Below, piece after piece: positions 3,001-6,000 of a DNA stretch of 13,537 nucleotides. Every line of letters begins with the position of its first letter. Positions within the stretch are counted from its first letter, which is position 1. Source of the DNA: a virus. Lineage: Duplodnaviria > Heunggongvirae > Uroviricota > Caudoviricetes. Made by a program: the position numbers. Where the stretch lies: the IMG/VR virus record IMGVR_UViG_2703718869_000027, one strand, 5' to 3'.

Positions 3001-6000
3001 TGTTACGAAGGCATTCGCGAAGCATCGCGCCGCTGAACCAGTCCGTCGCGAATATCTGCCAGGCTATCACGAAAGCCGTGACGGGCTTAAAGCACTGGGC
3101 GCAGAACGTCACCATTACATCAACCTTGCCCGCACTGAAAATCGCTTCGCTGGGCTGGCTGTAGGCGAGCGTCAGAGCGCGGGAGAGCAACAGTTAGGCT
3201 TACTGATAGTCATGCAGAAAATCGAGCAGGCAGCATTTAACGAGGCGATACAGAACGGCATGACACCGACCGAAGCGGTGCGGGAAGTTGCTCGCCGCAT
3301 GGAGACGTTCGCCAGCCTGATGACGTCAGCGCCGTCTCTGGGGGTGAATCATGCGTAATTATGTTATCCCTCCCAATCATGAAGGCGGTTATATTTATGT
3401 GGCGCTTTCTGACATTGGATTAGTTAAGGTTGGAAAAACCAGAAATGTTTCAGCCAGAATGAAACAGCTATCCACTGGTAGCGGCATAGTAATCACTAAA
3501 GTCGAGGTGTTAGGGCCATTTGTTAATTACGGACAAGTCGAATTAGCTATTCATGCAAAACTTACATCAGAACGCCGTTCTGGTGAGTGGTTTTCTGCTG
3601 ATTTTGATACGGTTAAAGCAATTGCTATCGATACATCAGGAATAGGTACTCCTGGTGCGGAATTAGTTAACAACGATGCTTATCGCTACGAACGCGTGTT
3701 TTTATGGTTTAGTGCGCATGAGGAACAAATTAAATACGAACAAGCACTTTGCGAAATATTATCTGATACGGCAATTAACTTTCTTAAGGAGTATGGCACA
3801 GCTTGCGCCCCATATGTTGCTTTATGTATTCACACAATGGGGGGTGTAACTCTTCAACAGGGACAAAAGGCCTACTCTGTATATCCTTGTGGATTTAAAG
3901 AGTCCACATTGGATCAGTTAAGGGAGGATTGGAATAATTTTGCAGATAAAGATATTTTCGAAGACTCTGATTTTGATGATTTTCTTATAGACATAAGTGA
4001 TAAAGATAAATTTAAGTCAGAAGCTGAGGAATGGAGAACTGATGCAATAAATAATCTTTTCACAGAACTCACCGATGATTACCAGCGCTGGCTGGCCCGT
4101 CGCATGGGAGAGCATGAACATGCCTGACATCCTCAAACCTGCTGTCCGGTACATCGACACGGCGGATAAGTTCGCACTACTGAACATCAACCATGCTGAT
4201 TACATGCGCCATATCGTGAGCCATTTCGCCGCTGAGCGCATGAAACACGTTAAGCATTATCAGAAGGAGGCTTTATCAAATTATCGCACTGGTGGCCCTG
4301 TACGGCGCGAATATCCGCATGATGCAGGAATGGCAGGCAAAACAAAGGCGACCACGAAAGGGTCGCCAGTGGAGATAAAGGAAATCAAGCGCATCACCAA
4401 CTATGCCATGAGTGTAGCTGGTGGACAATGCTATCAGCCAGGCGGTCGGTTTTTAGTGGCTTTTAACCGCCGTGGGTATTTCTCGACAAAATCTTCAAGG
4501 GCAAATTTTTTAGCTTTTGTATGTGATGCCTTTGACTCGTCATCACATGTTTTTCCGCGCCTTATCCTGTTTTCAATAAAACGGGAGGCGGCCTTTTTAT
4601 TCAGCGATGAATCAATGGGGCTGCTCCCTGTTTGCTGCTCGACAATGGCATCCATGAGTAGTTGGTGTTGTAGTTGTCGTAAAAATTTCTCATCTTCTGG
4701 TGGTAAATCCATACTTATTTCCTGTACAGCGGAGCGACGCAGCACCTCACACCACGGCGCTGATGGTTGTTATTCGTTTTATGGAGTCAAAGAAGCAAAA
4801 GCGGATCGCTATCGGTTTTTAGGCGAGATTAATCGCCGTGGGTATTTGTCCAGAAATGCCTCAAGCGCAAATCGTTTTGGTCTGGTGAGAGGAGAGGGAT
4901 TAAGCAAAGACTCACGTTCCAGGCGTACTTTTTCGCGCTGGCGCTCAAGTATGGATAATGCGATTTCCTGTAATTCTTCATTTGTCATTGTCTGTACCCG
5001 TAAAGCGGTGCGCTGTAGTACCTCATATCACAGCGCAGGTATTTTTTATGGTTGTAATTTGCGTGATGATTCAGGTCGCTTTGCGACATACTGCATAAAC
5101 ATAAATAACGTGATGTTATTATGTGCTTTCAAAGAAAACGCAGGTATTTTTCGCACAAACTTCTCTCGCAACACATCCGACCACTTAAGCAAAAAAGCGG
5201 CATATACTGAGGCTATCCCTTATAAAACGGGGATCGGGCGTAGGAACCCGTTTAATCAGTACAAGGCGACACAGGCGCGCCCAGCGTCTTTTTTTGTGTC
5301 ATGCCATCGCGCAACCATACCCAGCGGCAAGGCCCGTACTGTATCTATGGTGGCGCTGGTGGGGCAGCCGAAAGGCTGGCCGGTTTCCTTGTACGCCGGT
5401 ATTCCTACCCCCGCCAGCGTCACCGCCCTTTATGAGCGTAGGAACTCCAGCGGTGACTCCTTAAAACAGTACAAGGAGGCCTTTCACATGGCTGTATCCG
5501 CACGCCCTTACTTTGTCTGGCGCTTTATGCAGTGCCTGACAGACAGCATTGCAATATTCACCGTTACCGCTGCCACTGAGCGCGAAGCACGCGCCCAGCT
5601 GCCGCACGCACATCTTATTTTTGTCGCCCGTATCCGTCAGGAGGTGACTCATGCTTAAAACCTTCCGCGTCTTTTCCCGTGCTGTTAATAAGCGCGGCTA
5701 TACCGTTGGCATCACGCAGAACGTGAAGGCCGAAAACGTCCAGGCTGCAATCAGCACAGTAATTAACAAATCAGCTAAAGCCGGTTTATCCGGCGTAATT
5801 ATCCACGCAGTGACATGTATTCAGGATGAGGAGTAATTCATGTGTGATTTTTCCGATATGACTGTTGATGAAGCAGCAAAAAGCGCAATGCAGGCAGAAC
5901 TTATTTGTTCTCTGATGATGGGTAACACAGGTGAAATGACTGAGGGTGAGATTGAGTCATTGCTCGCCCTGATTAAGCAGCTTACAGGTAAGGCAGGTAG

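Follow-up and report, generated by a model that had tools for sequence, protein, structure and literature searches.

The 13,537-nucleotide (nt) stretch analysed here, IMG/VR virus record IMGVR_UViG_2703718869_000027 and hereafter called the window, is a chromosomal Escherichia coli island of the satellite type represented by P4 and the phage-inducible chromosomal islands (PICIs). Downstream of its AlpA-Rha-GIY-YIG operon lies a long plus-strand frame without a single stop codon, and opposite to it, on the minus strand, are two small genes that we call w1 and w2. The last third of the frame carries an immunity region like that of P4. We argue that the frame is probably an enlarged relative of the P4 eta open reading frame (ORF), kept open so that ribosomes can traverse it, and that the small genes lying antisense to it encode real proteins.

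A stop-free frame and the genes opposite it

A preliminary description of this DNA had placed the plus-strand ORF at 4075..5658 (527 amino acids). It is present as described, within a stop-to-stop stretch of 535 codons (4051..5658) that has in-frame ATG codons at 4075, 4114 and 4120. The last of these, from which we count the eta-like "translated spacer" (4120..5658), is preceded by GGGAGAG and stands 2 nt before the TGA (4125-4127) of the upstream GIY-YIG gene. Within 4051-5655 there are no stops in the long frame, 23 and 32 in the other plus frames, and 19-28 in the three minus frames. All 453 codons between the stop of the upstream gene and the start of an Icd/Kil-like gene (4128-5487) are open; in 5000 dinucleotide shuffles of this segment, the longest open frame had a mean of 107 and a maximum of 250 codons. 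The frame is therefore open far beyond chance.

The two minus-strand ORFs previously noted inside this frame are also present, and they are real paralogous genes. The gene w1 (4434..4712, 92 amino acids, N-terminus MDLPPEDEKF...) begins at an ATG with the Shine-Dalgarno (SD) sequence AGGA 9 nt before it, and is extended to a GTG at 4745 in the ORF listing; its homologue P0015 also has 92 amino acids. The shorter w2 (4809..4988, 59 amino acids) is of the MTNEELQ... type, and RefSeq annotates 62-residue homologues on that strand in other genomes. A common C-terminal motif had been claimed for the pair, and BLASTP bears this out with 16 of 25 residues identical (64%, E 4e-10). At the DNA level, the C-terminal modules form a 75-nt direct repeat (family D1) whose copies, at 4446..4520 in w1 and 4812..4886 in w2, are 75% identical and spaced by 366 nt (3 x 122). 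The codon-level argument of the preliminary description holds for the motif as well: the minus frame shows three synonymous changes plus the swaps K>R, D>A, V>L and E>D, and the plus frame nine changes, mostly non-conservative. The term "convergent" does not fit the pair, since w1 and w2 lie in tandem on the same strand and are convergent only with the plus-strand operon.

Members of this FALE-KYPRR (FALE) family have 56-92 amino acids, with variable N-termini and the C-terminus (K/R)FALE(D/A)F(V/L)(E/D)KYPRRLKxxKNRPPG. An exhaustive HMMER search with the family profile, which recognised members down to about 30% identity, covered 1.8 billion proteins and returned 17 clusters (at 50% identity); both w1 and w2 can be aligned with them, and the genes are divergent from the C4/icd unit described below. 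Using w2 as the query, a word-indexed search found 13 clusters, all from E. coli, and a search of contigs with w2-type N-terminus patterns gave hits in Escherichia and Shigella only. We conclude that w1 and w2 are members of a rare small-protein family whose helical N-terminus varies and whose basic C-terminal module is conserved. At E <= 1, no NCBIfam model matched w1 or w2, including the YlcI/YnfO model NF041551, which genes at the same position in sister islands match at about 59 bits; Pfam, NCBIfam, PHROGs and PADLOC searches of w1, w2 and the N-terminal 110 amino acids of the long frame gave no meaningful match. AlphaFold models w2 as two helices (predicted local distance difference test, pLDDT, 77), for which Foldseek returned 0 matches in the PDB, and a profile search of the PDB yielded noise only (Liprin, Nop10; E > 0.01).

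In related islands, the FALE gene is found in several combinations. In four of the loci that we retrieved (L008, L016, L020 and L023) it lies 57 nt after a 59-residue gene of the YlcI/YnfO family; L022 has the same 57-nt spacer after a first gene of 101 residues, and L015, like the window, begins the unit with a FALE-like gene. Tandem FALE-type genes are seen in the window and in an O157:H7 remnant, and in each synteny case the small-gene unit and the C4/icd unit point away from each other. L005 has a single hybrid gene, with the N-terminus of w2 and the C-terminus of w1, which is consistent with recombination between the repeats. The YlcI/YnfO-family gene of the sister islands looks ribbon-helix-helix-like from its sequence. 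A toxin-antitoxin reading of the YlcI and FALE genes was considered and rejected: the two FALE genes of the window are not accompanied by a YlcI partner, and the encoded proteins are hydrophilic and vary at their N-termini.

Some members have escaped annotation. For example, the O157:H7 strain F8092B (L004) has at 2961..3140 (-) an unannotated 59-residue ORF, MDLSPEDAKFLRELQHRMLREAIIEQQTG...KTRPPH, that is homologous to the N-terminal half of w1 and is flanked by two annotated small hypothetical genes. Three tandem small ORFs of this kind are thus present in the O157 remnant, one of them divergent and FALE-like (MNENKIKR...YFPLEDLIKNNGKKIR). Unannotated FALE-like ORFs also lie directly downstream of the annotated YlcI/YnfO gene in L007 (about 2600-2780, -; for example MSDTESTKTPSPTRKRRRKNIAHEHESERFAPCSFALEKFLKEHRKKLSLQTLERTKSD) and L009 (about 2590-2775, -), both with the variant motif FALEKFLKEH/Y-R-K/E-K. 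The hidden Markov model search therefore understates the breadth of the family, and these variants have been missed by RefSeq.

The small genes are flanked by conserved RNA elements. The same hairpin precedes w1 at 4734..4760 (-), with a 7-bp stem and a 13-nt loop containing UGAGGU, and w2 at 5010..5036 (-), as GCGCUGU-N13-ACAGCGC. It is found before every FALE start, with 92.9% of cells paired and compensatory changes at three pairs; its score was reached by 0 of 500 shuffles, and its G.U pairs are valid only on the sense strand of the small genes. Targeting of this leader hairpin by the C4 RNA was considered and rejected, as the complementarity stops at GTAC. Downstream of w1, a conserved 3' untranslated region (UTR; 4340..4433, -) ends in an intrinsic terminator-like hairpin at 4367..4347 (GGCGACC-CUUUCGU-GGUCGCC and a U-run). 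A stretch of about 105 nt here (4330-4441) shows about 80% conservation across many E. coli islands with unrelated flanks (H79-H85), above the level of the neighbouring coding sequence. Its fold contains two hairpins (z = -2.15), and it may represent an RNA element derived from the 3' UTR, for which the ProQ/FinO protein encoded by the island itself would be a possible reader.

The immunity region in the last third of the frame

The 3' third of the long frame overlies two RNA genes and a nested protein gene. An isrK-like leader RNA with a terminator is found at 5215..5294 (+), barely over the Rfam threshold (51.8 bits, gathering 50) and overlapped by a weak c4-a1b1 match at 5202-5254. It is followed by a C4/CI-type immunity antisense RNA at 5343..5430 (+; RF01695, 81.3 bits, gathering 45), whose match spans the whole covariance model (positions 1-87 of 87). 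The C4 loop, UCCUUGUAC at 5386-5394 (+), is complementary to two flanking sites, the GUACAAGG sites, which form the direct repeat D3. One is a seqA-like site, GTACAAGG, at 5259-5266 (+) within the isrK-like leader; the other is a seqC-like target, GTACAAGGA, at 5469..5477 (+), which overlaps the AAGGAGG SD sequence of the Icd/Kil-like gene. This gene (ATG 5488..5658, +; 56 amino acids) matches NF033153 at 53.7 bits and, being nested in frame, forms the 3' end of the eta-like ORF. A candidate -10 element, TATACT at 5203..5208 (+), lies 7 nt ahead of the isrK-like RNA start and may belong to an internal PLE-like promoter, although it was not called by a consensus scan.

Read as protein, the same region gives the only domain matches of the long ORF: Phage_ASH (PF10554, 75.9 bits) at residues 377-476 (nt 5203-5502), which overlies the isrK-like and C4 RNAs, and an ICD_like domain at residues 480-522. 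P4 is organized in the same way. Its stop-free frame 8168-8821 (217 codons) holds isrK-like and C4 RNAs, carries Phage_ASH and then ICD_like, and ends with Kil, a 65-residue protein that matches NF033153 at 76 bits; BLASTP aligns residues 392-526 of the window ORF with residues 47-206 of P4 Eta (35% identity, E 2e-12).

The profiles themselves deserve comment. PF10554 and PHROGs 6928, 995 and 821, labelled "transcriptional repressor/regulator", match only the part of the frame over the isrK-like and C4 RNAs (plus Icd), and this restriction applies to P4 and the sister islands as well as to the window. Translated RNA-gene sequence is probably what these families represent, and the label "repressor" was likely inherited from an old annotation of a P4 cI ORF.

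The immunity region varies among the sister islands. L007-L009 and L016 have kept the long frame and an Icd-like gene, but Rfam sees neither C4 nor isrK upstream of the latter; the gap of about 200 nt may hold a different, undescribed immunity RNA or mechanism. Some islands have a second, 154-residue "Icd-like" ORF (L002, 7655-8119; L023, 2404-2868, with C4 at 2626-2713), and L015 has two C4 RNAs (2829-2916 and 3310-3397). In L015 and L023, the extra C4 copy lies within or over the second Icd-like ORF, which would make two immunity units in series, whereas the window has one only.

Related islands and selection on the two strands

A long antisense frame in the same codon register was found in 11 of 11 intact retrieved islands (L001, L002, L005-L009, L015, L016, L022 and L023), each with no stops in the long frame and 13-36 in each other sense frame. 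The close relatives L001, L002 and L006 have 529-558 open codons, and the others range from 300 upwards: 300 in L007, 308 in L008, at least 341 in L016, 357 in L005, 372 in L023, 379 in L009, 493 in L022 and 524 in L015. Among 29 further IMG/VR loci the frame is open at 28, with 204-765 codons and varied boundaries. Openness persists despite differing antisense cargo (YlcI plus FALE, or FALE plus FALE), and even where the middle of the frame has been swapped wholesale between islands, openness alone is retained. The third codon positions of the plus frame and the minus genes coincide, a register that is constant across the retrieved and IMG/VR loci. When the synonymous codons of the small genes were resampled, the antisense frame stayed open in only 10-55% of trials per gene, as against 15 of 15 real genes. 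The open frame has thus been retained by selection in all intact related islands examined.

Decayed islands show the reverse. In the remnants L003, L004 and L010 (O157:H7 and Shigella loci), L012, L019 and L024, which are without C4, icd and primase, the frame is broken. In L012 and L019 the plus-frame stops fall within the antisense of the small gene, and the small ORFs themselves are intact. Two O157:H7-type remnants also carry the small RNA Esr41 of enterohaemorrhagic E. coli (EHEC) (RF02676; L003 1746-1819 and L004 1241-1314), about 2 kb from the FALE genes, which suggests that Esr41 sits in a relic of this island family.

Selection on the plus strand does not extend to its amino acids. 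The first 100 codons had been called protein-like, and their composition is indeed ordinary; protein-level constraint is absent, however, as the ratio of nonsynonymous to synonymous differences (pN/pS) over the first 104 codons (4120-4431) is 1.6 against L001, 5.0 against L005 and 1.3 against L015, with the differences concentrated at codon positions 1 and 2. The preliminary description was right that the product is not an ordinary protein across its middle and that this part is rich in Ser, Arg and Cys, which together make up 33% of residues opposite 4434..4712 and 40% opposite 4809..4988, compared to 12% in the first 104 codons. Residues 1-376 have zero matches in Pfam, NCBIfam or PHROG. No Bro-type domain (Bro-N, ANT, AntA, KilA-N or Phage_pRha) was found outside Phage_ASH in residues 1-376 or in sister frames of 500-765 codons, where Phage_ASH is the sole Pfam domain. 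The amino-acid sequence of the frame is not constrained, and selection acts against stops. The lack of a stop had also been taken as a possible sign of a disrupted gene. We reject this idea because a search for an intact stand-alone gene starting at 4120 gave only partial or short E. coli fragments.

For the minus strand, a comparison of dN/dS on both strands had been suggested as a check. With Nei-Gojobori estimates for 14 FALE pairs, one w1 pair and six YlcI-position pairs, it favours the minus genes weakly and does not discriminate: pN/pS is 0.26-0.9 in the sense frame and 0.33-1.0 in the eta register, with the sense value below the eta-frame value in 12 of the 14 FALE pairs (0.26-0.9 against 0.43-1.0), and about 0.6 to 2.3, mostly above 1, in the remaining two antisense frames. 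The contrast is weak, and both frames fall below 1, because their third codon positions coincide. We therefore turned to codon-family switches and to the remnant loci described above. At conserved Arg columns both CGN and AGR codons occur, and at conserved Leu columns CTN, TTR or the Met codon ATG; these switches preserve the minus-strand residue and scramble the plus-frame residues. Taken with a frame that is recurrently open and a 3' third that matches P4 Eta/Kil and the C4 RNA, this indicates that selection acts on each strand, preserving the encoded protein sequence on the minus strand and keeping stops out of the plus strand.

In two islands the way into the frame may differ. The eta-like frames of L022 (3763-3769) and L023 (3979-3982) are in frame with the upstream gene (Bro-N or AlpA), with one stop codon between, and their first ATG comes 20-60 codons past that stop. 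This arrangement hints at ribosome entry by re-initiation or stop-codon read-through.

The remainder of the window gives the island context. A tyrosine integrase (1-1323) is followed by a 240-residue ORF, an AlpA/HTH_17 regulator, a Rha-type gene and, as the last gene of the plus-strand AlpA-Rha operon, the GIY-YIG/T5orf172-type gene (3351..4127, +), whose stop overlaps the eta-like start region. Several small ORFs separate the studied region from a D5-type primase-helicase (6462-8285), after which come SSB, a ProQ/FinO protein (9484-9900) and PerC. The GIY-YIG/T5orf172 gene matches the PADLOC candidate defence family PDC-S57 (E 1.4e-8), and its slot is a variable cargo position, occupied by AntA/AntB, Bro-N or Rha genes in sister islands. 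Related or near-identical islands were found in hundreds of E. coli genomes (431 by megablast, 962 by blastn), inserted near yicC or dinD, among other sites. Searches of a plasmid collection found fragments only, and in a phage collection the match was limited to the C4/isrK part. Annotation of the long plus frame is inconsistent between these genomes: in RM10042 RefSeq has a 550-residue "Icd-like protein", SCU-106 and 2013C-4974 are given "ash family" pseudogenes, and other genomes have hypothetical proteins on the minus strand. Such RefSeq and Pfam-based annotations of the plus frame are misleading.

Proposed translation of the frame and competing explanations

The reading that we consider probable is that 4120-5658 is an expanded anti-polarity ORF of the P4 eta type, running over a real, counter-transcribed small-gene unit. 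It is suggested by an ATG at 4120 that abuts the GIY-YIG stop and by an open frame without amino-acid constraint, as predicted for such a role. P4 eta is coupled to an upstream alpA homologue, spans an internal constitutive promoter and the nested Kil, and is translated in a way that prevents termination (PMC10111431). In the window, anatomy, homology, RNA complementarity, the recurrent selection for an open frame and the protein-level conservation of the small genes are supported directly; for Rho dependence, the location of the promoters, the timing and what the small proteins do, we rely on inference.

On this model, the internal constitutive promoter, tentatively at about 5203-5208, would give rise to the isrK-like leader and the C4/CI RNA. 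The C4 loop would pair with 5259-5266 and 5469-5477, the second of which lies over the ribosome-binding site of the Icd/Kil-like gene. If P4 is a guide, this pairing would block Kil translation and lead Rho to terminate transcription before the replication genes. Transcripts entering from the AlpA-Rha-GIY-YIG operon, on the other hand, would bring coupled ribosomes that translate the frame, that is, about 1.4 kb of otherwise untranslated RNA and the immunity region. Their passage would shield the transcript from Rho and C4 and permit read-through to icd and the primase operon, so that the selected trait would be the act of translation, with no stops, and not the polypeptide. The minus unit would be embedded antisense to all this, driven by a putative promoter in 4989-5214 that is divergent from the immunity promoter, in the order leader hairpin, w2, second hairpin, w1, conserved 3' UTR and terminator (4367-4347). 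From their position, the ribbon-helix-helix-looking YlcI/YnfO gene at the equivalent place and the counter-transcription geometry, one might guess that w1 and w2 are regulators or partners in a switch between quiescence and induction of the island. For P4, work by Forti et al. from 1999 is said to have found that transcripts from the internal promoter yield CI RNA and end early, Kil being the gene translated first and its translation subject to immunity; full-length Eta is reportedly made only from transcripts of the upstream late promoter, which read through to the replication genes.

Several observations weigh against this reading. The frame does not abut the upstream gene in L008 and L009 (gaps of 53-94 nt) or in L015 (a larger gap), so coupling is not universal. 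Rfam detects no C4 inside the long frame of several sister islands (L007-L009 and L016). Direct BLASTP of the 56-residue Icd-like protein against P4 Kil gives no match, and the two are linked via the shared NF033153 model. The role proposed for w1 and w2 comes without any homology or fold match (Pfam, NCBIfam, PHROGs, PADLOC, PDB). Finally, a sigma-70 consensus scan of 3900-5800 called 0 promoter-like sites, whether internal or for the small genes, with 2.6 +/- 1.6 in shuffles, and the promoter positions given here are therefore putative; at least two promoters would nevertheless have to lie in this segment, those of the immunity RNA and of the small genes, and they may be non-canonical or activator-dependent.

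A quite different view would be that the long ORF is a genuine multi-domain "Bro-network" fusion of Ash and Icd, whose sequence matters throughout, and that the minus ORFs are incidental. The RefSeq annotation in RM10042 and the matches to Phage_ASH and several PHROG "transcriptional repressor" families speak for it, as does the view of eta-like genes as domain-swapping Bro-network proteins (PMC10111431). Against this, the family matches are confined to the RNA genes and the nested Icd, leaving the N-terminal 376 residues without any; pN/pS exceeds 1; the part with 33-40% Ser, Arg and Cys is exactly antisense to the conserved small proteins; and sister islands hold unrelated sequence there, keeping openness alone. 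We consider such a fusion improbable. Still less credible is the notion that the minus ORFs are untranslated shadows, conserved through DNA or RNA elements or as recombination modules. The small number of clusters (17 among 1.8 billion proteins) would fit with it, as would a C-terminal module that travels as a 97-nt, 99%-identical DNA segment (H78), a pN/pS that fails to part the two frames cleanly, and the lack of a known domain or fold. Yet the Arg (CGN/AGR) and Leu (CTN/TTR, with Met ATG) switches keep the minus residue and scramble the plus one, and the ORFs are intact at about 30-45% identity and in remnants with plus-frame stops inside them. Moreover, the start context, the leader hairpin and the 57-nt spacing after the YlcI-like gene are all conserved, the sense pN/pS is the lower in 12 of 14 FALE pairs, and the YlcI/YnfO partner is a curated protein family.

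That the frame could be a chance or compositional artefact over-interpreted by gene callers is refuted at the level of sequence statistics, and we give it practically no weight. A low A content of the plus strand across 4400-5000 makes stops somewhat less frequent, and in this register the antisense frames of real genes are open in 10-55% of cases per small gene; but the other plus frames have 23 and 32 stops, none of 5000 shuffles exceeded 250 codons, and the frame recurs in about 39 further loci of different sequence. The rival with the most to recommend it, though still unlikely in our judgement, is that the frame is open for translation for a reason other than protection from Rho, for example unwinding of isrK/C4, shielding from RNase III or antisense RNA, or survival of head-on RNA polymerases. 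The same openness statistics apply to it, the frame is antisense to a transcribed unit with its own terminator, and some islands have the frame without a detectable C4. What counts against it is the behaviour of P4, in which Forti et al. in 1999 reportedly saw eta nonsense mutations cause an early stop at the Rho-dependent terminator timm and suppression restore read-through; in addition, these alternatives are not mutually exclusive with Rho protection.

The anti-polarity reading places the window next to three systems that are already known. It has in common with P4 eta/kil/CI a long ORF that runs from at or near the end of an AlpA-type operon across an internal promoter (a candidate one in the window), an isrK-like leader and a C4/CI RNA, ending in a nested in-frame Kil/Icd-like gene, as well as the Phage_ASH and ICD_like signatures and a C4 loop complementary to both sides, with one site on the Kil SD. 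It differs in length, with 512-535 codons in the window and 204-765 in sister islands against about 199-217 for P4 eta, the extra 1.1 kb or so of the window not being protein-like. P4 also lacks the complete counter-transcribed small-gene unit of promoter region, hairpins, two genes and terminator. In the immI operon of P1, c4 is processed from the 5' part and controls the downstream icd-type cell-division inhibitor. P1/P7 immI and the window both have a C4-family RNA (RF01695) before an icd-type gene and pairing of its loop with a target; in the window, icd is followed by replication genes and not by ant, and to our knowledge the P1 model has no long upstream ORF through c4. The isrK-orf45-anrP region of Salmonella Gifsy-1 (IsrK small RNA, RF01394) is similar in its isrK-type leader with its own terminator near a candidate promoter, and isrK is said to give short and read-through isoforms there (Hershko-Shalev and colleagues, 2016).

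Within the same class of islands, the YlcI/YnfO gene (NF041551) resembles w2 in position and orientation, as the first gene divergent from the immunity promoter and antisense within the long frame, whereas the window carries a pair of FALE-type genes and lacks a YlcI-type gene. The "Bro-network" eta-like genes of Gram-negative PICIs occupy the same zone, flanked by the Integration and Replication zones, and homologues of CI and seqA inside PICI "Bro" genes were already reported in 2023 (PMC10111431). That study sees domain-swapping proteins, while the window data point to a non-protein translated spacer over real minus-strand genes; antisense genes go unmentioned in it (0 occurrences of "antisense" or "opposite strand"). 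We found no description of the two- to four-fold expansion of the frame or its lack of amino-acid constraint, of a frame antisense to a complete, real small-gene unit in a fixed register across dozens of islands, or of the FALE family and its leader hairpin.

With frames two to four times as long as in P4, the eta paradigm is carried over to PICI-type islands, and the locus provides a rare, statistically strong bacterial case of selection on both strands. It also defines a small-protein family and a conserved RNA hairpin placed centrally in the switch of islands that carry PerC-family regulators as well in EHEC-type strains. Further, it flags systematic misannotation, from the 550-residue "Icd-like protein" and the "ash family" pseudogenes to the missed FALE-like ORFs of L007 and L009 and the 59-residue ORF of O157:H7. 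What looked like an annotation oddity becomes a mechanism that can be tested, in which translation would serve over 1.4 kb solely to prevent termination. More generally, and with somewhat less than even confidence, we propose that a large class of enterobacterial satellites has ORFs of 200-765 codons that exist only to be translated, with stops purged and amino acids ignored; Phage_ASH, the "ash family", the 500-residue "Icd-like" proteins and many Bro-network "domain-swap" segments would then be by-products of translating sequence that is not protein-coding, and the FALE/YlcI unit, together with its conserved leader hairpin and 3' UTR, may be an unrecognised second arm of the on/off switch. 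If so, frames lying antisense to a small-gene operon would constrain the codon choice of the real genes on the opposite strand, giving a clean natural two-strand overlap with different selection on each strand.

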